DNA of 64,000 nucleotides from assembly GCA_964016885.1 (NCBI GenBank), contig OZ024740.1, positions 97,526,001 through 97,590,000 of the forward strand. Reading direction: 5' to 3'. Under the pieces are notes generated by a model. The model saw only the letters and a list, made by a program, of their open reading frames with translations, was not told the DNA's origin and did not search any database. This document shows, piece by piece, positions 4,842-58,593 of this stretch. Numbering within the stretch: position 1 is the first letter of the stretch; the number at the start of each line of letters is the position of its first letter. This DNA is from Eledone cirrhosa. Taxonomy: Eukaryota. A program made the translations under genes and the position numbers.

Positions 4842-4907
4842 TATTTCGTTATATATATTTCTGGGATATCATATTAAAAATATGGTATGCCTTCCTCAGA
4901 CAAAATA
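4842..4907 (-). ncRNA. Type I hammerhead ribozyme motif (inverted pLTR copy)
   Basis: Reverse complement of the motif at 7815-7880. Confidence 0.7.
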
Positions 4908-10703: not shown

Positions 10704-10746
10704 ACGGTGCTGATGATAGCTAACAAGCTTGAAACTAGTACATCGT
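10704..10746 (+). ncRNA. Minimal type I hammerhead ribozyme
   Basis: acggtg-CTGATGA-tagct aaca agctt-GAAA-ctag-TA-catcgt. Confidence 0.85.
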
Positions 10747-11205: not shown

Positions 11206-11248
11206 ACGGTGCTGATGATAGTTAACAAGCTTGAAACTAGTACATCGT
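11206..11248 (+). ncRNA. Minimal type I hammerhead ribozyme (second tandem copy)
   Basis: acggtg-CTGATGA-tagtt aaca agctt-GAAA-ctag-TA-catcgt; the C>T change in stem II leaves a U.G pair. Confidence 0.85.
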
Positions 11249-11853: not shown

Positions 11854-11894
11854 CGATAAACTAGTTTCAAGCTTATTAGCTATCGTCAGAATCG
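11854..11894 (-). ncRNA. Diverged hammerhead of the same family in the loop of a second fold-back (11638-11806 / 11904-12060)
   Basis: Minus strand: cgatt-CTGACGA-tagctaataagctt-GAAA-ctag-TT-tatcg. Confidence 0.65.
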
Positions 11895-12753: not shown

Positions 12754-12879
12754 TATATTTATTAAAATAACAGATTAAAGTTTAAGCATAAATCGCTGCT
12801 GTCACCCTTAACGGGATCTTCTGAAACTAACAAGTCAATCTTTGAACGCAGAAGTGAATATTTCAAAAAACGTTGCAAG

Positions 12880-13511
12880 TGGAGGTATATGATTTTTAAA
12901 GCGATGAAATACCAATGAAGGTTGGAAAATCACTGATGAAGGACTATTTTATCATATGTAACCCATGTGCAACCACGCAGTATTCATTCTTCTCATGTTT
13001 TCATATATATTTTCCCCAGCTGCGTTTGTCTGTTTCTCTCTTACTGCTTCCCCCCTCTCTCTGTTTCTCACCTTCTTTCGCCCCCTCTGTCAGTTACACT
13101 TTCTCTCGACTGGCCTCTTCCTCGCACTTCCACTCACCCACTCTCTGTTCCTCCCCTTCTCACTTCCTCCCGTTTTGCCTGAAGTGGGGTCCTTTCTTGC
13201 TCACACCTCACTCGCGTCGGACGGTCTGCTGTCTCTCGCTCATGAAATCCACACAGCTTATGCTGATCGGACTCCCATGTGCTTGTTTTTTCCTATCCTT
13301 GCGTTGTTATCCTTCTATGTTTGTTTATTTGTCTCGCTCGCTTTACGCGATTTACTTGTCCCAATAGCTTTATTTAGCTATTGCTCGCACCAACTGGAGG
13401 TATATGATTTTTAAAGCTATGAAATACCAATGAAGGTTGGAAAATCACTGGTGAAGGACTATTTTTATCATATGTAACCCATGTACAACCACGCAGTATT
13501 CATTCTTCTCA

Positions 13512-13516
<5 letters not shown>
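12880..13516 (+). mobile_element. ORF-less partial tandem unit (period 515) carrying hammerhead strands in permuted order
   Basis: 12881-13000 repeats at 13396-13514. Homologous to 57218-58105 on the minus strand. Confidence 0.7.
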
Positions 13517-19202: not shown

Positions 19203-19256
19203 CTTTATTAGCCAACAATGTTTCGCCCTAGTAAGGACTCATCAGGGCAAGTAAAG
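19203..19256 (-). ncRNA. Type I hammerhead ribozyme (sense to the PLE ORF)
   Basis: Minus strand: ctttacttgcc-CTGATGA-gtcc ttacta gggc-GAAA-cattg-TT-ggctaataaag. Confidence 0.85.
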
Positions 19257-20706: not shown

Positions 20707-23271
20707 CTAATGGATACGATTTAAACTACCAGAACTTTTAGGTCTATAATAGAAGAAAGAATTAGAAATGGCATGGGGGCAGGAAGAAAATATCTCAGAC
20801 TTTCTATTAAGCAAAACTTCCCTAGAGAAAATTATAGAGTGGGTCTCTAGGATACAGAGATTACAGAATTTAGTGTGTGCTGATAGGTTATTAGAGCGTG
20901 CTACTATACGCCAATTAAGGCTATATGGCATGCCTGCCCCTTTAAGATCCCAGATATGATGTGCTAAAGAAGTAGAGTTCTTAAACTTAACATGCTTAAA
21001 ATTAGAGATATGAGAATTAAACCTAGTTTTAAAAGTATTTGATGTGGAGCCTATATATGTGCTATTAGAAGAATCAGTCTTAACTTCACAAGCATAAACA
21101 ATGTTCCTAGAGAGGCAGTGACCATTTAAAGGGCAGTTAATACTTACTCTACAGTTACACCTCCTGGTGCTATTTACCGGCTGAATAAGTGATGCATTAC
21201 TTCTAGGGTTATTATAAGATAAGGTCTGCTCAGGTGGTAAGGCATTAATGGATCTATCAAGACTAGTAGTACGCAAAGAGGAGTAGCTGTCCCTAATTTT
21301 CTTATTGGTAGTGCTAGCTAAATGAGAACTAATATTAGGGGTGGCAGAGAATGATAGTTTAATTACATTTTTATTAAAAATATCATGGTATTTATTAGTA
21401 GGAGGGAAATCTTTCTCTAAGATAGAAAAGAAAGACCTAGGGATGTTAGTTAATACTTCATGATCATAAGGCAGGTTAAAATAAGTATTGAGTCTCCTCC
21501 TATTTCTATCCTTACGAACTCTACCGTTATCCAGTATCCCACTAATAGGATCAGGGTTACTACGAAGACTAGTTGAAACAACATTATTAGAAGCAGCCAA
21601 AACCCCATTGAGTCTCCTTCTGTTTCTACTTTTAGTATATCTACTGTTATCTGGAATCATATCAATAGGATTAGGGTTACTACCAGGATCAGTTGAAACC
21701 ACACTATTAGAATTAGTAAAAACATTACCACTGGGTGAGCGATCAGAGTGCCTAACTTGTTCCCTAGAACTAATCCCGAAAAGTGTACCATTAGACTCAC
21801 TATTACGATTACGGTAGCTTAACCTATGGATGGGTTCGGATACACCTATGGGATTTCTACGATTCTTATGCTTTCTACTCCCATTCATGGCCATATTATG
21901 GGAAATTACGTTATTATTACTATGGGTAAATGGAGACTTTCTAAGGTTGTTCTCATTATAATGTATTTTACCAGAGTAACCTGAGTTAGCTAGGGCATTA
22001 TTATAGTACTCTGCATGTGAATTAAATATTCCTATTTCCTTAGAGAGTGTGGAAATTCTATTAGATACACCGTTAATTATAGAGCTAATCATAGATTTGG
22101 AGTGGTTAGAATTGGGATTAACATAAGAGAGTATTTCATTAGGCTTATGGAAGGGTTTATAACTATTAGTGACCAAGTCCAAAGTCACATCTAAAAAGTC
22201 GACCGCTCTATCATTTCTATCAATCGTGATCGAAAGGTTAACACTTTTAAAAAAATTATAAAGTTTCTTCCTATTATGCTCAATATTGTTGGTGCTAGAG
22301 TTTATCACAAACAATGCATCGTCACGATAAAGTCCGCCTTTAAGGTGCGGAAAGGTAACATACAGTTCATTAAGGAGGAACAGCCCAACAAGATCAGTTA
22401 CCTGGGCCGAATCATTCGAACCCATTGTAACGTCGAAATTGTTGGGTGTGTTTTTACGCGTCCAAAGTGTATCCTCGAATTTGATGATAGTCCTACGGGC
22501 TGCTAGTATAACATTAATCTGCGGCCGTGTAAGGCTAGACACTCGCATGGCCATAATTAAGGCTTTATTAAGGAGGATAGGTGAAATCGACGTGTAATAG
22601 GCATCAATATCAAACTGGATAAACCTACTAGACCCAAGTTTATTAATACCAGAGAACCAATCTATAACATCCTTAGTGTTCCCCCATAAATTAAAATGAA
22701 CCTTTTCCCTAACGGCTGGTATAATCAGGTCAAGGATTTTCTTACTAATAATAGCTATATCCGACTTAGAAGGACTAATGAGTCTAACAGAAGGATTACT
22801 AATGAAGTCTACCTTATGATCCTTAAGAGTGAATCTCGGTTCCCCAGGGTAATATGGCTGGGTATACTTATCAAGGCCCAGGTCCGAAACTATCTTGAGA
22901 CACTCATTATTGATATGATCCAAATTATCTTGCGTTGTCTTTTTGTAATGTCTATGCAGCTCCTTATAGATAAAATTACGGTAAGCATTGTAATCCATAG
23001 AGTAAAGATACTTAGTCTTGTCAGCTGGGACAAGAATAGACTTATTCCCTTTAAAATCCTTAACGATATTCTTAAGTTTAGACTGGAACCTGTCGAACTT
23101 ATTATAGTTCCCATATCTATTATACGGCCTATACTTTATATTTTTGACAAGGGAAAGTAAATCGTTCTCAAAATTATCTAATAGAACATTATGCGGTGGG
23201 CTCTTATAAGTCTCTAAACCAAAGTTATTGAAACGAGTCCTATCCCGGGGATCAATCCCATTCCTACCAAT
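20707..23271 (-). CDS. Penelope-like reverse transcriptase + GIY-YIG endonuclease (5'-truncated at the inversion junction; first ATG at 22998)
   Basis: ADKT, KDHK, RLIS, FDIDAYYTSI, TMGS, YRDD, FLDV, SNH, CNC..CPL..C, IVY..YIGST..RF..H and CNLC..CPH. The frame stays open about 90 codons upstream of the listed 763-aa ORF. Confidence 0.95.
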   Translation of the reverse strand: MGRNGIDPRDRTRFNNFGLETYKSPPHNVLLDNFENDLLSLVKNIKYRPYNRYGNYNKFDRFQSKLKNIVKDFKGNKSILVPADKTKYLYSMDYNAYRNFIYKELHRHYKKTTQDNLDHINNECLKIVSDLGLDKYTQPYYPGEPRFTLKDHKVDFISNPSVRLISPSKSDIAIISKKILDLIIPAVREKVHFNLWGNTKDVIDWFSGINKLGSSRFIQFDIDAYYTSISPILLNKALIMAMRVSSLTRPQINVILAARRTIIKFEDTLWTRKNTPNNFDVTMGSNDSAQVTDLVGLFLLNELYVTFPHLKGGLYRDDALFVINSSTNNIEHNRKKLYNFFKSVNLSITIDRNDRAVDFLDVTLDLVTNSYKPFHKPNEILSYVNPNSNHSKSMISSIINGVSNRISTLSKEIGIFNSHAEYYNNALANSGYSGKIHYNENNLRKSPFTHSNNNVISHNMAMNGSRKHKNRRNPIGVSEPIHRLSYRNRNSESNGTLFGISSREQVRHSDRSPSGNVFTNSNSVVSTDPGSNPNPIDMIPDNSRYTKSRNRRRLNGVLAASNNVVSTSLRSNPDPISGILDNGRVRKDRNRRRLNTYFNLPYDHEVLTNIPRSFFSILEKDFPPTNKYHDIFNKNVIKLSFSATPNISSHLASTTNKKIRDSYSSLRTTSLDRSINALPPEQTLSYNNPRSNASLIQPVNSTRRCNCRVSINCPLNGHCLSRNIVYACEVKTDSSNSTYIGSTSNTFKTRFNSHISNFKHVKFKNSTSLAHHIWDLKGAGMPYSLNWRIVARSNNLSAHTKFCNLCILETHSIIFSREVLLNRKSEIFSSCPHAISNSFFYYRPKSSGSLNRIH

Positions 23272-24309
23272 TCTTGATAATTTTATTGAGATATCTTAAA
23301 CTTATATGGTTTTGATGACTTAAACAATAGCTAATTTTAAAGTGACTAAATATGTATTTTAAATACTTTTAATATTAATTAATTTAAAAAGGTTTTTCTA
23401 GTCAACTCTCTCGTCTACATTTCTATCTTTTTTCTTTTACTTAACCGCTAGTGACACCTAAGTAAATATACTTGTTTTTGTTTTTCGATCTTCCGTTTAT
23501 TTTATTTATTTTTTTACTACCACACGCTGTTTGTCTGACCATGTAATTTCATTAATATATGTCTGTATGTCAACCACGTAAATATATTTTGTAATATTTT
23601 GTGATATTTTGGTAATATTTATGCCAATGTAAAATGACTTGACCTCCGTGTATTTGTTACAATGGTATAGATATTTTTTCAACACAATTTTTTCAACACA
23701 ATTTAGTTCTATATGATTTTTTCTTACCCTGTGTAAAACTTTATACTATTGGTTAACCTTAAATTATATGTATGATGTAATTTTGTATATCTTTTGATGC
23801 CAATATATTATAATATTGTTATTATAATGTTATTATAATGTTTCCATATTGTTTATGCACACTGACAGGGAATTATATATTATATTTTATTTTAATTTTT
23901 ATCTTTATTCTTATTTTTATCTTTATTAAATTATACTGTAAACAATATATATATATATATTTAAATACTTAATAAGTGTTAGTTTGTATGTGTATTAATG
24001 AGTATATGTATAGAGATATATGTATATATATATACATATATTAAGCTTTTTATTATCACCATCTATTATATTATATTATACTCGCATTATATTACCATTT
24101 GTGTTTCAAGTTTTTGCATTATACAATATTTGCAGTGTGGGTTCAACATGTTAGTCACTTCCTTGCTATTTGGTCAATATCTATGTTTGTAACTGCTCAC
24201 TCTTAATCTTAGGCAACTTTTCCTTGATATATTTCCTAAGCTTTAATAGATGTATACTCCATATTCTTCTGAGTTTTTGGCTTGTATTGGCCGATAGTGC
24301 TTCTTGTAG

Positions 24310-24363
24310 CTTTACTTGCCCTGATGAGTCCTTAATAGGACGAAACATTGTTGGCTAATAAAG
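24310..24363 (+). ncRNA. Type I hammerhead ribozyme (inverted pLTR copy)
   Basis: ctttacttgcc-CTGATGA-gtcc ttaata ggac-GAAA-cattg-TT-ggctaataaag. Confidence 0.85.
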
Positions 24364-24971: not shown

Positions 24972-25056
24972 ACTCCAACTAATTAGTTTCTGAAAGGGAA
25001 TAAACATAGTTTCCGAATGGAACAACATGGCGAAAATCCTTTCGTCATCAGGAAGT
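24972..25056 (-). ncRNA. Type I hammerhead with long stem II (inverted copy)
   Basis: Reverse complement of the motif at 25534-25618. Confidence 0.75.
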
Positions 25057-25533: not shown

Positions 25534-25618
25534 ACTTCCTGATGACGAAAGGATTTTCGCCATATTGTTCCATTTGGAAACCATGTTTATTCCCTTTCAG
25601 AAACTAATTAGTTGGAGT
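25534..25618 (+). ncRNA. Type I hammerhead with long stem II
   Basis: acttc-CTGATGA-c gaaagg...cctttc a-GAAA-ctaattag-TT-ggagt; palindromic stem III. Confidence 0.75.
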
Positions 25619-26064: not shown

Positions 26065-26149
26065 ACTTCCTGATGACGAAAGGATTTTCGCCATGTTGTT
26101 CCATTCGGAAACCATGTTTATTCCCTTTCAGAAACTAATTTGTTGGAGT
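26065..26149 (+). ncRNA. Type I hammerhead with long stem II (second tandem copy)
   Basis: Same motif 531 bp downstream; stem III reads ctaatttg. Confidence 0.7.
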
Positions 26150-28595: not shown

Positions 28596-29354
28596 ATGGC
28601 GACAAGACTATGAACAAGCGAAGCTATCAGGGTATTTACCGGGGAAGGTGATGTTGTCGCTTGGCTGCGAAAAGTCCGGGTCGTCACAAGCTTGCAGAAG
28701 ATAGATGCGGCTGGCCTAATGACACTGTACCTCGAGGGGGACGCGTTGATACTCTTCCTTGAGTTGGACGAACACAGCCAAAGTGATGCGCAAAAGATTG
28801 AGAGGCGCATGATAGAAGCTTTCGCAGAGGGACCATTAGCCGCTTTCGCTAAGCTGGCAAGAATTAGATGGAACGGTGAACGCGTTGACATTTTCGCAGC
28901 GGAAATACGGCGATTGGCCATGTTGGCTGGATATCAGGTGGAATGCGAACGCTCGGTGCGGTTGGCGTTAATAAATGGATTTCCAGACGACATAGCGGTG
29001 AAACTGCAGCAAGTCCTGGGTTACAAAGAAATGGAAATGCGTTCACTGGTGGAACAAGCACGGATCATAGCAGAAGATGCCAAAAAGAGTGTTGCGGCGA
29101 TAGCAACTACAGAGGCTCAAGACAGCTGGCAGCGAAATGGTGAAAGGGAGGCAACCACGGCACGCGGTCGCCCGCGAACGTTTAGAGGTCTCTGTTTTCG
29201 GTGCCAGGGCCCGCACATGGCTAGAGATTGCAGAGAGTCAAGGCCGGAAATAATATGCTACCGGTGTAAGTGCCCGGGCCACATCGCTATTAACTGCAAC
29301 CAGGGAAACGATCCAAGGGGAAATACTGCGCCGGTAGTTGCCCCTTACGAGTAG
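28596..29354 (+). pseudogene. gag: Gag with two zinc knuckles (one early in-frame stop)
   Basis: ATG at 28596 is in frame with the 28692-29354 ORF, with TGA at 28611. Knuckles CFRCQGPHMARDC and CYRCKCPGHIAINC. Confidence 0.85.
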
Positions 29355-29360
29355 AGGCGC
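29303..29360 (+). promoter_or_regulatory. -1 programmed ribosomal frameshift signal (G GGA AAC + downstream stem/pseudoknot)
   Basis: The heptamer is in gag phase and the -1 frame reads open into the ALVDTGC protease. Stem aagggg/cccctt follows after 5 nt; loop gcgcc is complementary to ggcgc at 29356-29360. Confidence 0.75.
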
Positions 29361-32112
29361 TGCCCGTGGTAGAAGTCTTCGTGAAGGGAAAGCCACAGCA
29401 AGCCCTCGTGGACACGGGCTGTACGACGACACTGGTGACCGCGGGGGTGACGCAGAGGTGGAGAGGGAAGAGCAGCGTAAGGGCAGTCGACGGCAGGAAA
29501 ATTGAATGCCGAGGTCGCAGCGAGATGCAAATAGCGGTACGGGGAAGGAAAATACGGCTTTCTCTGCCATCGTAGTAGACAGCGTGATGGATGGGATCGG
29601 CGTGGTTATGGGCATGGACGCAATATCCCGTCTAGGAGGCATCACAGTGAACAACGTCGGTGTGTCGTTTGGCGCCGCTGCATCGGTATGCGCTCTGAGT
29701 GCGCGACAGGAGAACCAGAAGGCCCACGAGGAGAAATACCCCACTTACACTGTGCAGGACAAAGACTTCAAGGCCGGGTTCGATGGGCAGCGATGGGTTG
29801 TTGAGTGGTACTGGAAGGGAGAACCACCAACACTGAAGACCAAAGTGGGCTGCTATCAACACACATTGAAGGGAAACATTAGGAGCGAGTTCGAGCGAGA
29901 GGTAGAGATGGATTGAAGAGGGCATACTGCTTCCCTGGAAAGAGGAGGTGAAATGCGGAGTATTGCCGTTAATGGCGGTGGCGCAACCCACGAAGAACAA
30001 GGTGAGGCCGGTGCTGGACTTTCGGGAGCTGAACCAGCACGTGTCATGCCACACGGGTGGCGAGGTCACGGATGTCTCGTGGGAAACCCTGCGTGAGTGG
30101 AGACACATGACGGGGGGTTCAGCAATCGTAGATCGAAAGTCGGCATACTTGCAATTGCATATAGATGAGAAGCTCTGGCAGTATCAGCTGGTCAAGTATA
30201 AGGGCCGGACATATTGCCTGACCATGCTCGGTTTCGGGCTGAGCTCCGCACCGAAAATCATGGCGGCGTTCCTCAAGACCATTCTGGAAAAGGCCGACAA
30301 GATGAAGAGAGCCACTAACTCCTATATTGACGACATCCTAGTAGACGAGTCTGTGGTGTCGGCGGCGGAGGTCACGAGCCATTTACAGGGGTATGGACGG
30401 GCTGCGAAGCCGTCAGAAGCGTTGGAGGGAGGAGCCGCGTTGGGACTTAGGCTACGGCGAGACAAGACGGGCATCTTCGTATTCGAGAGGGGAAATGAAG
30501 TTCCAGAACTGGGCCCAAGTATGAGTAGGCGGGAGCTTTTCTCGGTGTTTGGAAAGTTGGTGGCTCCGGACGGCATGCAGCTATGTCAAGAGACGAGCGG
30601 GAGGAGTGACAGAGTGGGAGAGAGGACGGTGGCCATGATGCAGGAGATCGTGGGGAGGGTGAAGGCCGACGATCCAGTGCGGGGACGCTGGTATGTTCCC
30701 AAATCACAGAGCGGGACCGTATGGTTCGATACCAGCAGCATAGCGCTGGGTGTCACGTTGGAGATAGGAGGTGTTGAGGTCGAGGATGCAGCCTGGCTTA
30801 GGAAGAAAGACGACTGCAACCATATCAATGTTGCCGGACTGGACGCAGTGTTGAGAGGGGTGAACCTCGCCCTGATGTGGGGACTGCGCGCCATCGAGAT
30901 ACGCACCGACTCGGCTACTGTACTCGGATGGGTGAGATCAGTGCTCACCAGTGAGAAGAGAGTGCGAACGAGGGTGGCGGCGGAGATGCTGATAAAGCGC
31001 TGCCTGGGAACTTTAGGAGGGCTGGCCACCGAGTTCGACCTGAGGTTGAGCGTAGTTTTCGTGCCCTCAGAGAAAAATAGGGCGGACATCTTAACTAGGG
31101 TGAAGAAAGCCTGGATGGAAGCGCCGGAGGAGGTTGAAGATGAAATAGTTGCCGTGTGTCGGATCTGAAAGGGTTGCATGACATGCACCACATGGGTGTG
31201 GATAGGAGCCTGTTCCTAGTCAGGAGAATCGACTCGGACGTTAACAGACACAGTGTTCAAAGGGTGGTTAGAGGATGCGTCCGATGTCAGTCCGATGATC
31301 CCACCCCGGGTGTACATGAAACGGGAAGCCTCCCGGTGGATCGCGACTGGAAGCGATTGGCGGTGGATGTAACGCACTACCGACAGGGAATACCTCTCGA
31401 TGGTCGACTGCGGACCAGGACGGATGGCGATATGGAGGGAGATGAAGACTGGAACGGCCGAGGAAATCATGCGGACGTTGAGAGAGGTGTTCTTGGAGCG
31501 GGGCCCTGTGGACGAACTGCTGATGGACAACAGCGCAGCGTTCCGCTTGGAGGCGCTGAGGAAGATGCTCGATGGATGGAAGGTGGACCCTTTCAAAAGA
31601 GCGGCGCACAGGCCGAGCGGGAATGGAATTGTGGAGCGACACCACCGGACGATCAAGGCAATGGCGGAGCGGGGCCATATCTCACCAATGGAGGCAGTGT
31701 TCTGGTACAACATGTCCCCTGGGTGGGACAGGTCGAGGAATCGGTGTCACACAGAGCAGTATTCAGATACGAGTGGCGGCACCCGTGCACGCCACCACAA
31801 CGGCCAGTGGGGAGATAGAGTGCATTCGTGCAGGTGGGCGAAGAAGTCTGGGTTAAGCCCCCATATGCACGTTGCACATCTCAATGGGGAAGGGGAATGG
31901 TGACGGCCGTAAATTCCCAGAACAATGTGTCCGGGGACGGAGTACCACGTCATGTCCTGGATGTCCGTAGAATCAATGTGTCAACGGACTCCGAGGAAGA
32001 GGACACCCAAAGTGCTTCCCCAACACTGCGGAGATCGCAAAGAAGTCGTAAACCACCAACCTGGACAGCAGACTTTTATATGCAGAAGGACGAGGGGGAA
32101 ATTGATCCTTGA
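29303..32112 (+). pseudogene. pol: Pol (protease, RT, RNase H, integrase), several frameshifts
   Basis: ALVDTGC; RPVLDFRELN, GFGLSSAP, YIDD; RNase H IRTDS and NRAD; integrase H..H..CVRC, AVDVTH, MDN and GNGIVER. Confidence 0.9.
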
Positions 32113-32125
32113 GATCAGGGGTGCG

Positions 32126-32378
32126 TGTGGGTATGGTGTGGCGTGCGGTGGGCCGGAAGCGGGGGAGTGCTCGACCGGAAGGGTGCTTGGCCGGAGGGAT
32201 GCTTGACTGGAAGGGCCAGCAGATGGCCCTCTCAGGTGGTGACCAGCAACGGTGTGGACGCGAGTTTTGGCAGCTCCCGGTGTTAAGCAGTTGGACGCAC
32301 GCGGAAGAGGAGAGACCAGCAGTGGAATTTAGCGGCGCCTATGAAAAGCGGTAAGTAAGATAGCTTTTTCTAACCTCA
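32126..32378 (+). repeat. 3' LTR
   Basis: TG...CA termini; direct repeat of the 5' LTR. Confidence 0.9.
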
Positions 32379-37424: not shown

Positions 37425-37469
37425 AGTCATAGTCCTTTCGTCACACACTCTGTGACCTCTTCAGTGACT
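37425..37469 (-). ncRNA. Minimal type I hammerhead
   Basis: Reverse complement of 37534-37578. Confidence 0.85.
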
Positions 37470-37533
37470 GGGGATTCCTTTCTGGCGTAGGATAGAAGAA
37501 AGGAAAGGCACAGAAACGAAGAAAGGAATCCCC

Positions 37534-37578
37534 AGTCACTGAAGAGGTCACAGAGTGTGTGACGAAAGGACTATGACT
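37534..37578 (+). ncRNA. Minimal type I hammerhead
   Basis: agtca-CTGAAGA-g gtcaca gagtg tgtgac-GAAA-ggac-TA-tgact. Confidence 0.85.
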
Positions 37579-53954: not shown

Positions 53955-55256
53955 TTAATTCATCATCATCATCATCATCATCATCATCCGCTTTTCCCTG
54001 CTTGCAAGGGTGGGACGGCTCTTATTCAGCACAGCATCTCTCCGCTCGTCACGGTCCCTCGTCATCTCCACCGTGAGCTTCAATGATCTGAGGTCTGTTC
54101 TCACCACCTCCGCCCATGTTTTTCGTGGTCTACCTCTACCACGTCTTCCTTCAACTGGCATTTCCTGGCACTTCTTCACCCATCGGTCATCCTCCATGCG
54201 CATCACATGTCCATACCACCTCAGTCTCCTCTCCCGTACACTACATTCTATCCCTCTCAGACACAGTTTCTCTCTCAACACATTTATGCTGGGTCGTTCA
54301 CGCACATTTACACTGCACATCCAACGGAGCATGCTTGCCTCATTTCTCTCCAGCTGTCGCATATCTTCTGCGGTTGCTGCCCATGTCTCACTACCATGCA
54401 GCATCGCGCTCCTCACAGAGGCATCATACAACCGGCCTTTCGTACGCAGGGAGAAACCCTTCTTCGTCAACAGAGGAAGCAGCTCCCTAAACTTCTTCCA
54501 ACCCGTCCTTATTCTAGATACTATGGCCTCGGAACACCCTCCTCCCATGCTAATCTGATCTTCTAGGTACCGGAAGCTATCCACCACTTCTATAGCGCCC
54601 TCTCGCATTTGAAAAATGTCTCTATCAGTGCGACTTCTACTGTCTAATTTCCCTGTACATCTACTGCATACATATTTCTCCCTACCTGATAGTTTGCCTG
54701 CTATCCCGCTACATCTCTTGTGTACCCAGGACCTGCATTGTGTGCATTTTATAGAATTTATGCCAGTTCCTTTTCAGCATATCGAACATGGCCATTTCCC
54801 TGGCGGAATCAGGGTTTTGTCCTCTTTTCTACTCATCAACACTTTTGTCTTAGCTAGATTTACTCTCAGTCCTCTTGCTTCCAACTGCTGTTTCCATAGC
54901 CGGAATTTATTCTCTAGCTCCTCTACTGATTCTGCCATAAGAGCCAGATCGTCAGCATAGAGAAGTTCCCATGGACAGCCAGTCTTAAACTCCTCTTTTA
55001 TGGCTTGGAGGACTATAATGAACAAGAGCGGGCTGAGGACCGAACCCTGATGTACTCCTACTTGTATCTGGAATTCCTCACTAAACTCCATTCCTACCCT
55101 GACTTCACTGAGAGTACCTCTGTACAAAGTTTGCACTGTCCTCACAAGCCATTCCTCAACACCCAGCTTCCTTAGGGACCACCAGATGACAGATCGGGGT
55201 ACCCTATCAAAGGCCTTCTCTAGGTCAACAAAGGCTAAGTATAGTGGCTTATTCAT
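53955..55256 (-). pseudogene. RTE-clade LINE, 5'-truncated RT with internal PHD-type finger; single in-frame stop
   Basis: FVDLEKAFDRV, GVHQGSVLSPLLF, YADD, KTKVL, C4HC3 finger, FRYL, RRLRWYGHV, GRPRKTW. The two listed ORFs share one frame, split by TGA at 54774-54776. Confidence 0.9.
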
Positions 55257-55286
55257 ATATATATATATATATGTTTTCTTATATAT

Positions 55287-55319
<33 letters not shown>

Positions 55320-55630
55320 AATTGGGATAATACTTAGGTATATCCTAATGTTTGTTGAGTGAGATGGAGTTGCTCGGAGTATCGCTTACGGCTTTCTCTG
55401 TTTATGTATTGTATATATATATATATATATTTATTAAAATAACAGATTAAATTTTAAGCAAAGAATCGCTGCTTTCACCCTTAACGGTGTCTTCTGAAAC
55501 TAAAAATATCAATCTATGAACGCTGAAGTAAATATTTCATAAAACGTTGCAACTGAAGTAAGACTGGAAGACGATACTTTGGTTCGTGGAAACGTTCCCT
55601 GGCAGAGAACGGAAAAAAACCGAAAATAAT

Positions 55631-55943: not shown

Positions 55944-56009
55944 TAATTCATTATACATATTTCAAGGGCCACCAAGGCAAACTCTGGTGCGCTTTCATCA
56001 GATAAAATA
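55944..56009 (-). ncRNA. Type I hammerhead (inverted arm)
   Basis: Reverse complement of 56117-56182 with a few substitutions. Confidence 0.7.

Positions 56010-57188: not shown

Positions 57189-57190
<2 letters not shown>
56349..57190 (+). mobile_element. Penelope-like 3' end (GIY-YIG C-terminus + pLTR with hammerhead) with short 5' inversion
   Basis: 56349-56450 is inverted against 56479-56580. Frame ..DRQIRDASEIELRRPRLNRKNEW. The end 57105-57185 is homologous to 37201-37282 (minus). Confidence 0.7.
56891..56930 (+). ncRNA. Minimal hammerhead, homolog of 37534-37578
   Basis: ca-CTGACGA-t gttgca gatg tgcaac-GAAA-gaac-TT-tg; stem I is weak. Confidence 0.65.
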
Positions 57191-57217
<27 letters not shown>

Positions 57218-57221
<4 letters not shown>

Positions 57222-58100
57222 TAAAGTTAGTCCTTCATCAGTGATCTTCCAACCTTCATTGGTATTTCATCGTTTTAAAGACCATATACCTCCGGTTAGT
57301 GCGAGCAACGGCTAAAGAAAGTCGTTGGGACACGTAAATAAGGGGAAAGAGCGAGACTGTAAACAAACAAAGATGGTAAAGCAACGAAACGTGAGGAAGA
57401 AAGAGTCAAGTCCCAGATTTCCATGAATATAAGTTCGGTGAAATCGTGAACGAGAGAGAATAAAGACCATCAAACCTAGTCGAAATGTGAGCAAGGAGGA
57501 ATTCCGCACAGGTCAAACGGGAGGGAGAAGGAGTCTAGTCCCTGAATTCGGTGAACATAAGTTCTGTGAAATCGTAGACAAGAGAGAAAAAGGAACAACC
57601 AGCCTGGTCAAGCGTGCGCGAGAAAATAATTATGCACAGGTCAAACGGGAGGAAGTGGGAGAGGTAGTAGCAGAGAGAGAGTGAGTGAAGGGTGAGGAAG
57701 AGGCTAACAGAGAGAGTGACTGTTAGAGAGGGTAAAGATACAGAGAAAGAGGAAGCAGTAAGAACGAAATAGACGGGTCACACGCGGAAAATATATGTGT
57801 GAATATGAAAACAAACGTGCTGCGTGGTTGCAAATGGGTTACATATGAATAAAGTTAGTCTTTCATCAGTGATCTTCCAACCTACATTGGTATTTCATCG
57901 CTTTAAAGACCATATACCTCCGGTTGGTGCGAGCAACGGCTAAAGAAAGTTGTTGGGACACGTAAATAAGGGGAACGAGCGAGACTGTAAACAAACAAAG
58001 ATGGTAAAGCAACGAAAGGTGAGGAAGAAAGAGTCAAGTCCCAGATTTCCATGAATATAAATTCGGTGAAATCGTGAACGAGAGAGAATAAAGACCATCA

Positions 58101-58105
<5 letters not shown>
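57218..58105 (-). mobile_element. ORF-less partial tandem unit (period 628), permuted-hammerhead family
   Basis: 57218-57475 repeats at 57846-58103. Motif homologous to 12884-12946. (TA)n flanks. Confidence 0.75.
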
Positions 58106-58155
<50 letters not shown>

Positions 58156-58161
<6 letters not shown>

Positions 58162-58593
58162 AAAGGATAACAAGGAGGATTGGTTACTCCTTCATTACAT
58201 TTATTGGTAGGTGACGCGCATTTCGCAACTGATCAGCTCAAGGTTCGATCTGTATCGATCTTACCCGACTCAATAATCGTCAGCTCGACGGACCCTTTAA
58301 AATGCTATAAGATTTTTAAAAAAAAATTTTTTTTTTCTTATACCATTTTAAAGGGTCCGTCGAGCTGCCGATTATTGAGTCGGGTTAGATCGATACAGAT
58401 CGAACCCTGAGCTGATCAGTGGCGAAACGCGCGTCACCTACCAATACATGTAATGAAGGAGTAACCAATCGTCCTTGTTATCCTTTCAATATATTACAGC
58501 CTGTATAGCTCTACACGTCAAAACAGACTTGAACGTAAACATCGAGTGCTCACTTGGGTGAACCTGCAGTAACTCCAAGTTACACTCCCTAGA
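58156..58593 (+). mobile_element. Fold-back element with atypical hammerhead-like motif and unpaired tail
   Basis: 58156-58312 is inverted against 58336-58492. GAAAcgcgcgTC at 58424-58435. (TA)n flanks. Confidence 0.75.

Follow-up and report, generated by a model that had tools for sequence, protein, structure and literature searches.

The insertion near 57 kb of the window, by which the whole 64,000-nucleotide stretch of Eledone cirrhosa DNA analysed here is meant, is likely to represent the 3' end of a non-coding repeat with many copies in the genome, a non-autonomous Penelope-like element of the Naiad type that carries a predicted self-cleaving hammerhead of S-G-C order. It is very likely that this region folds into a genuine RNA structure that is under selection and contains a hammerhead core. 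The predicted ribozyme, as modelled, probably cleaves, and a Naiad-type origin is fairly likely. The features are listed in Table 1. Two minus-strand copies of the motif that runs from GGTATA to CTGATGA are located at 57863-57918 and 57235-57290 with a period of 628, where the initial annotation had placed them, and both lie inside the 267-nt direct repeat, whose copies are 96% identical. The longest ORF starting with ATG on the sense strand of the insertion encodes 52 aa. An inverted repeat of 159 nt (58154-58494, 95% complementary, spacer of 23 nt) adjoins the (TA)n tract at the 5' end.

Table 1. Features of the 57-kb insertion, its ribozyme domains and the sister insertion (window positions)
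Feature	Position	Strand	Remarks
Whole insertion	57212..58106	-	895 bp = 1.42 units; 267-nt terminal direct repeat; 5'-truncated; non-coding
(TA)n, element 3' end	57190..57218		
(TA)n, element 5' end	58104..58159		
5' ribozyme domain (helix A to A')	57858..57959	-	core intact; private mismatches in helix A (57861) and hairpin B (57951)
3' ribozyme domain (helix A to A')	57230..57331	-	core intact; private mismatch in helix C (57273)
Catalytic core words, 3' copy	57235..57268	-	GAAA (57265-57268) upstream of CUGAUGA (57235-57241); order S-G-C
Predicted cleavage site after A17 of AUA triplet	57284..57285 (3' copy); 57912/57913 (5' copy)	-	by analogy with hammerhead numbering
Stem I, 7 bp	57242..57284	-	57278-57284 with 57242-57248
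Stem III and kink-turn-type internal loop	57255..57293	-	57286-57290 with 57261-57265; loop 57291-57293 with 57255-57260
Helix A, 5' strand	57328..57331	-	pairs with 57230-57233, the strand after CUGAUGA + 1 nt
Hairpin B	57306..57327	-	abuts helix A without linker; double changes in 5/7 pairs
Helix C, 5' strand, substitutes for stem II	57301..57304	-	pairs with 57270-57273, one nt before GAAA
Helix D, 5' strand	57294..57299	-	pairs with 57249-57254, just before stem I 3' strand
Predicted 628-nt monomer between both predicted cleavage sites	57285..57912	-	66% pyrimidine; weakly self-paired
Internal 128-nt tandem duplication	57387..57655		2.1 copies, 77% matches
Sister insertion, other subfamily	12876..13515	+	unit of 515 nt; (TA)n at end

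From 5' to 3', the motif opens with a cleavage block, in which AUA lies between one strand of stem III and one of stem I; GAAA and the second stem III strand follow, and the second stem I strand with CUGAUGA comes last. The complete hammerhead core (C3-U4-G5-A6-N7-G8-A9, G12-A13-A14 and A15.1-U16.1) is present in both 57-kb copies, in agreement with the permuted hammerhead proposed in the initial annotation. At the 12.9-kb sister insertion, the first motif is 5'-truncated and devoid of the upstream helices, and the second has A6 replaced by G. Its unit is roughly 70% alike to the 628-nt unit; the two differ in length and sequence as had been noted, and most of the difference in length is accounted for by the internal 128-nt duplication. 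The exact pattern of the motif is matched 6,269 times in the genome and the reversed-pattern control 0 times. Searched with a sequence-free SGC descriptor, the window yields 3 hits, and neither 10 locally shuffled windows nor 120 viral loci containing both core words yield any. These results indicate that the motif has not arisen by chance. A strict descriptor of the four-way junction described below is passed by neither of the 57-kb copies.

Because the 51 copies of the first alignment were found through the core, a second sample was drawn without using the core. The first alignment was selected by hand from copies whose domain is complete, 46 out of a list of 79 and 5 from another list, and omits truncated, deleted and near-duplicate copies. 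The second, core-blind sample was anchored on helix A and hairpin B alone, which match 3,145 times in the genome (control, 0); the first 30 loci were taken and 25 of them were aligned (24 distinct rows), L202, L205, L223, L226 and L228 being dropped for large indels. A third alignment uses 11 of 20 loci. All 11 core letters are kept in 20 of the 25 core-blind copies. Position 17 is A in 13 and C in 12 copies (triplets AUA and AUC) and is never another letter, position 7 is T in 21 and C in 4, and all four letters occur after A9. The linker between stem I and the helix C strand is 4 nt long, and its first three nucleotides (TAA) are invariant in all 25 copies. GGTATA and GAAATACC are identical in the four copies of the window, as stated in the initial annotation, but GGTATA varies genome-wide at position 17.

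The ribozyme domain extends about 45 nt further upstream than was initially recognized and contains four more helices, A, B, C and D. Comparison of subfamilies indicates that the strand following CUGAUGA finds its partner about 100 nt upstream, and the two form helix A, which is paired in 96.6% of the cells and shows a G-C/A-U double change in 14 of the 51 copies. Helix C, which is 4 bp long in the window family, is paired in 96.1% of the cells with one double-change pair in the 51 copies, and in 88.5% with two such pairs in the core-blind sample. Helix D shows double changes in 5 of its 6 pairs in the former sample and in 6 of 6 in the latter, and stem I shows them in 4 of 7 pairs in both samples, which supports the earlier claim that the stem I pairing is under selection. 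Stem I of the 57-kb locus differs from that of the 12.9-kb locus, as claimed, by one double change from U-A to C-G and one change from A-U to G.U. The internal loop beside stem III carries a 3-nt bulge and all four G/A letters of the kink-turn consensus (G1b-A1n, A2b-G2n) in 38 of the 51 and 20 of the 25 core-blind copies, with a Watson-Crick 3b-3n pair in 1 and 3 copies, respectively. A possible helix between the ATGA bulge and a downstream TCAT involves letters that are claimed by the kink-turn.

The whole fold comprises 34 pairs, with 95.8% of the cells paired in the 51 copies and double changes in 17 of the 34 pairs, whereas partners that are slid against each other are paired in 26-44%. 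The double-change cells number 142, compared with 39.0 ± 6.0 after shuffling, and 59, compared with 19.8, in the core-blind sample (0 of 500 shuffles as high), where both figures count related copies from roughly ten subfamilies, not independent events. In the latter sample, 22 pairs (helices C and D, stems III and I) are 90.0% paired and 14 of them show double changes. The covariation noted among the four window copies therefore persists in larger alignments. Since related copies share changes by descent, the shuffles overstate the significance, and this shared descent is what can be said for a chance motif in an ordinary repeat. Such a motif is nevertheless extremely improbable, because it is rejected by the slid controls and by a second family that keeps all six helices with other letters, while the excess of exact matches over their control, both covariation samples and the descriptor controls are all against it. 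This second SGC family gives 220 pattern matches, most of the listed ones belonging to it (control, 2), and has other letters in every helix with 89.4% pairing on the identical fold. It shows no covariation of its own, with one double-change cell and 432 of 500 shuffles as high. The second family (L109-L127) is older; its helix C has 7 bp and adjoins GAAA directly, a bulge takes the place of the kink-turn, and many of its copies end in (TG)n, not (TA)n.

A canonical stem II, in which the strand directly following A9 would pair with the one that precedes G12, is rejected, a point that had escaped the initial annotation. Its five pairs are formed in 32.2% of the cells, which is no better than the slid controls, and helices A and C take its place. 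Position 10.1-11.1 is paired in 28 of the 51 copies. Nested minimum-free-energy folding gives z-scores of −0.97 and −0.57 for the window copies, which indicate no significant stability (range +0.68 to −2.57 over 7 copies), and the sequence of the domain is no better conserved than that of the spacer across subfamilies. The paired base predominates at the helix mismatch sites of the window copies in the contigs of runs X1 and X2, which are of unrecorded kind, derive from a single sample and are possibly those from which the assembly was made. At the two sites of the 5' domain, the family (paired) letter accounts for 87,756 of 88,131 and 24,976 of 26,155 of the summed contig depth of X1, and at the site of the 3' domain the paired base accounts for 115,586 of 116,242. 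In the contigs of X1 and X2 together, the paired base exceeds 99% of the summed depth at the helix A and helix C sites. The mismatches are therefore private changes of the window copies.

The arrangement of these helices suggests that the chain would be opened between A9 and position 10.1, and that the upstream strand (helix C) would make up for the absent strand of stem II. Helix A and hairpin B would clamp this break, in such a way that a four-way junction is formed on the A9-G12 pair. Helix D would connect stems I and II at their distal ends, and stem III would be turned back toward helix D by the kink-turn. Helix D, which covaries, is placed in the predicted fold so as to allow a contact between distal stems I and II. 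The type-SGC hammerheads (HRIMA-1), which derive from metatranscriptomes and cleave in vitro according to the passages of Eckert et al. 2023 (PMC10085705) that were available, resemble this ribozyme in the S-G-C order, the full core, a short linker between stem I and the strand before GAAA (about 3 nt, compared with 4 nt here) and an extra helix at distal stems I/II. They differ from it, as far as these passages describe them, in that block C is broken here and clamped by helix A and hairpin B, and in that thousands of chromosomal copies are present here; the kink-turn is not described in the same passages. The ribozyme would work like a type-SGC hammerhead, but is not a member of this type as defined, because block C (CUGAnGA and the stem II strand) is broken. 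In comparison with what is described of the kink-turns Kt-7 and Kt-23, the predicted one is part of a hammerhead, where it connects stem III with helix D, and one subfamily has U at 2n, unlike the consensus.

According to a rough estimate, 5 bp, the kink-turn and 6 bp are rather short for reaching distal stems I/II in a monomer. Eckert et al. 2023 flag the same geometric difficulty in the passages available (PMC10085705). If a domain-swapped dimer of two tandem copies were the active form, with pairings and chemistry unchanged, stem III would not need to bend back. The axolotl retrozyme hammerheads, as described in part of PMC7229834, cleave better as dimers, and stem III and helix D appear by eye nearly continuous, without a kink-turn, in the Naiad_EuTe consensus passage (PMC8557442). 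A dimer is quite unlikely, however, because most clusters hold a single motif (see below), because the frequent kink-turn consensus with its almost never Watson-Crick 3b-3n pair suits a monomer, and because the published SGC ribozymes, according to the same passages of Eckert et al. 2023 (PMC10085705), cleaved as single-copy constructs. It is also very improbable that the fold is a hammerhead-derived, non-cleaving signal for binding or priming by a retroelement protein. Such a signal would fit the rebuilt and weak stem II, the position at the 3' end, where priming signals lie, and the TAA linker, which is likewise invariant in the 25 core-blind copies, and its kink-turn could bind a protein of the L7Ae family; but the letters kept are those that hammerhead chemistry requires, and positions 7 and 17 vary as in active hammerheads.

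The first 100 of the 6,269 matches form 84 clusters, of which 69 contain a single motif, 10 are tandem, 4 are head-to-head and 1 is both. A tandem arrangement is thus found in 11 of the 84 clusters, none of the 15 clusters with several motifs is tail-to-tail, and no array with more than two motifs occurs among these matches. The initial annotation described two motifs per locus, which holds in the window but not genome-wide, and the pairs include inverted head-to-head ones as well as tandem ones. The units between tandem motifs are 470-644 nt long (13 units; a fourteenth, L136, may belong to another family). The 5' ends of the elements are variable, and recurrent 3' ends are found at unit position 79 or close to 128. 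A (TA)4 starts 10-50 nt past A9 in 43 of 108 copies, compared with 409 of 5,000 random places. The copies of the window subfamily are 88-96% alike. A (TA)n target, 5' truncation, partial tandems and an inverted 5' copy are all present in the repeat. In the accessible part of Craig et al. 2021 (PMC8557442), partial tandems and inverted 5' copies belong to the anatomy of Penelope-like elements and a (TA)n preference is given for Naiads; the repeat resembles Naiads there in all these features and in the tail, and differs from them in lacking an ORF. This anatomy is not specific to Naiads, because it is common to other Penelope-like clades.

Cleavage after AUA or AUC would trim partial-tandem or read-through transcripts to unit length near the 3' end, and the unit-length RNA would be copied in trans into (TA)n sites by a Penelope-like RT/GIY-YIG protein. 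A locus with two motifs, as in the window, would release a 628-nt monomer able to circularise. The repeat is not a classical retrozyme by definition, because it contains no type I motif (its order is S-G-C), but it may work like one. The animal non-LTR retrozymes, in the parts of PMC7229834 and bioRxiv 10.64898/2026.07.22.740005 that were available, likewise have a non-coding repeated unit, one hammerhead, a GC content of 44% and a proposed Penelope-like machinery. Their hammerheads are type I and were sought with type I descriptors only, according to the same parts, whereas the units here, of the lengths given above, are mostly single. A true circular-RNA retrozyme, in which two cleavages release a monomer that is circularised and copied by rolling reverse transcription, is compatible with a non-autonomous Penelope-like element, yet unlikely. 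The head-to-tail units, the helices that would hold the two ends of the cleaved monomer together and the Penelope-like origin proposed for animal retrozymes (bioRxiv 10.64898/2026.07.22.740005, in part) speak for it. However, head-to-head pairs are common, arrays with more than two motifs are missing among the first 100 matches, the ribozyme is not type I, and the monomer, with 66% pyrimidine, is 46% paired when folded as a circle, unlike the highly self-paired circles described in part of PMC7229834. The retrozyme-like monomer of the initial annotation is thus supported only in part: most loci are single, head-to-head pairs occur and the anatomy fits a non-autonomous Penelope-like element.

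The link to Naiads comes from the consensus sequences in the supplement of PMC8557442. The supplement lists 54 Naiads and was read by eye at CTGATGA places 1-52 of 62, at places 1-18 of three other forms and in the whole of part 19; the folds were drawn by eye, not computed, and line breaks can hide matches. Nine passages contain the full set of A, B, C, D, III and I, arranged as in this repeat but built from other letters, and thus the same 3'-end ribozyme fold as this repeat, as judged by eye. Six of them are named from adjacent headers (Naiad_Amil, Aacu, Anas, EuTe, Obim and Ovul) and three are without shown names (one in part 9 and two in part 12). Naiad_Bfor fits the fold with a stem I of just 2 bp. 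Kink-turn-type linkers are seen by eye in both Octopus passages and are absent from those of corals and the clam shrimp. In six further passages (Nbra-1, Nbra-2, Nbra-3, Hcon and two without names, from parts 13 and 16), the order is CSG and stem II is of the ordinary kind. The CSG passages in File_S5 parts 13-16, four of them named as nematode elements, read by eye as clean type-CSG hammerheads. No core is seen by eye in the 3' region of Naiad_Ppla and none in the bivalve part, and several cores in parts 16-19 fit no parsed fold. Naiads are reported in the accessible part of Craig et al. 2021 (PMC8557442) to lack a canonical hammerhead, some having a 'core' or 'half core' that fits no descriptor. 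Rare decayed motifs in the present genome (L121, L231, L232 and L108) are similar to the Octopus Naiad 3' end. L121 gives just 2 further matches, with no RT upstream within the stretch examined.

A broader reading, somewhat more likely than not, is that much of the Naiad clade across animal phyla has a non-circularly permuted hammerhead as its standard 3' ribozyme. Those of nematodes would be CSG with an ordinary stem II, and those of cnidarians, crustaceans and cephalopods would have a seventh topology with the opening between A9 and stem II, the four-way junction and, in some lineages, the kink-turn, their non-autonomous derivatives reaching many thousands per genome. SGC, CSG and GCS would be circular permutations of one another, and the new form would arise from a further opening between A9 and 10.1.

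No intact Naiad is found in the genome among the 150 candidates, out of 236, that were scored, for which the query was itself decayed. The same scoring gives 148 matches to Naiad-like RT remnants, whose open frames are shorter than 400 residues and mostly interrupted by stops. The motif is located at the end of 0 of 20 extended Naiad-like RT loci, a Naiad RT motif pattern gives 0 matches and a second such pattern 1, and the best 30 loci of a Pfam GIY-YIG search all have a C-terminal endonuclease or are not Naiad-like. The Naiad link therefore rests on the shared fold. A motif look-alike 414 nt past a Naiad-like RT (L149/L150) is rejected, as the aligned copies have no CUGAUGA there. The Nematis-like RT-EN elements adjoining SGC copies (L128, L129 and L145) are rejected as parent, because the element of L128 is equipped with a type I motif of its own and is separated from the SGC copy by a (TA)n tract.

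Other Penelope-like elements with long RT-GIY-YIG ORFs are present, sit in (TA)n and have their own type I motifs. Judged by clade motifs, they are Hydra-, Neptune- and Nematis-like. It is possible, but doubtful, that a ribozyme fold of Naiad origin or type is carried by a repeat which one of these clades now moves. The window-subfamily copies are highly alike whereas the scored Naiad-like RT matches are all decayed, which would be accounted for by such a mover, as long ORFs of other clades exist. On the other hand, the type I motifs of these elements are their own and (TA)n separates them from the SGC repeat, the repeat spacer is matched at 7 of 102 PLE-protein loci, solely where an SGC-family copy lies, and the Naiad scoring covered 150 of the 236 candidates with a decayed query.

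Several other elements of these kinds are observed. An uninterrupted 862-aa RT + GIY-YIG-like ORF without Pfam match is located at window positions 20707-23295 (−), and presumably belongs to a Hydra-clade Penelope-like element; it is flanked by inverted canonical type I hammerhead motifs at 19221-19245 (−) and 24321-24345 (+) and by (TA)n. Canonical type I hammerhead-like motifs are located at 10710-10734 (+), 11212-11236 (+) and 11865-11889 (−), with a tandem unit of about 500 nt, and four copies of a type I unit of about 500 nt at L098 (8068-9577) represent a classical retrozyme candidate missed at Rfam gathering thresholds. An inverted terminal-repeat pair with a minimal type I motif marks a Nematis-like RT-endonuclease element (window 37436-37567; L128, 2406-6224). 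Inverted type I-like hammerhead pairs are seen at 55960-56001 (−)/56125-56166 (+) and 4858-4899 (−)/7823-7864 (+). A CUGAUGA repeat with a period of 531 and one inverted copy is located at 25010-25051 (−), 25539-25580 (+) and 26070-26111 (+), with related words in L077, L133 and L186. A GC-rich RT/RNase H-like region (28614-32338) and a PHD finger with an RT region (53955-55385) represent other retrotransposons.

A literature search of titles and abstracts, which covered few subscription journals, gives no report of such a permuted hammerhead in Naiad or other Penelope-like elements. In the passages available of Eckert et al. 2023 (PMC10085705), the genomes of known organisms yield one GCS candidate only and no other permuted motif, type-CSG consists of just two metagenome sequences, and CUGAnGA is assumed to be always followed by a stem II strand, with six topologies. 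If the present interpretation is true, it would for the first time place non-circularly permuted hammerheads on chromosomes and in a biological context, and the topology would contradict the published rule that CUGAnGA and stem II are inseparable. It would also reverse the statement that Naiads lack hammerheads and restore the ribozyme link to nearly all Penelope-like clades. Rfam at gathering thresholds gives 0 matches in the 64-kb window, which indicates that present ribozyme counts in animal genomes miss this class. With its thousands of natural variants, the fold would be open to direct tests, among them how the contact between stems I and II is reached by stem III in SGC ribozymes.
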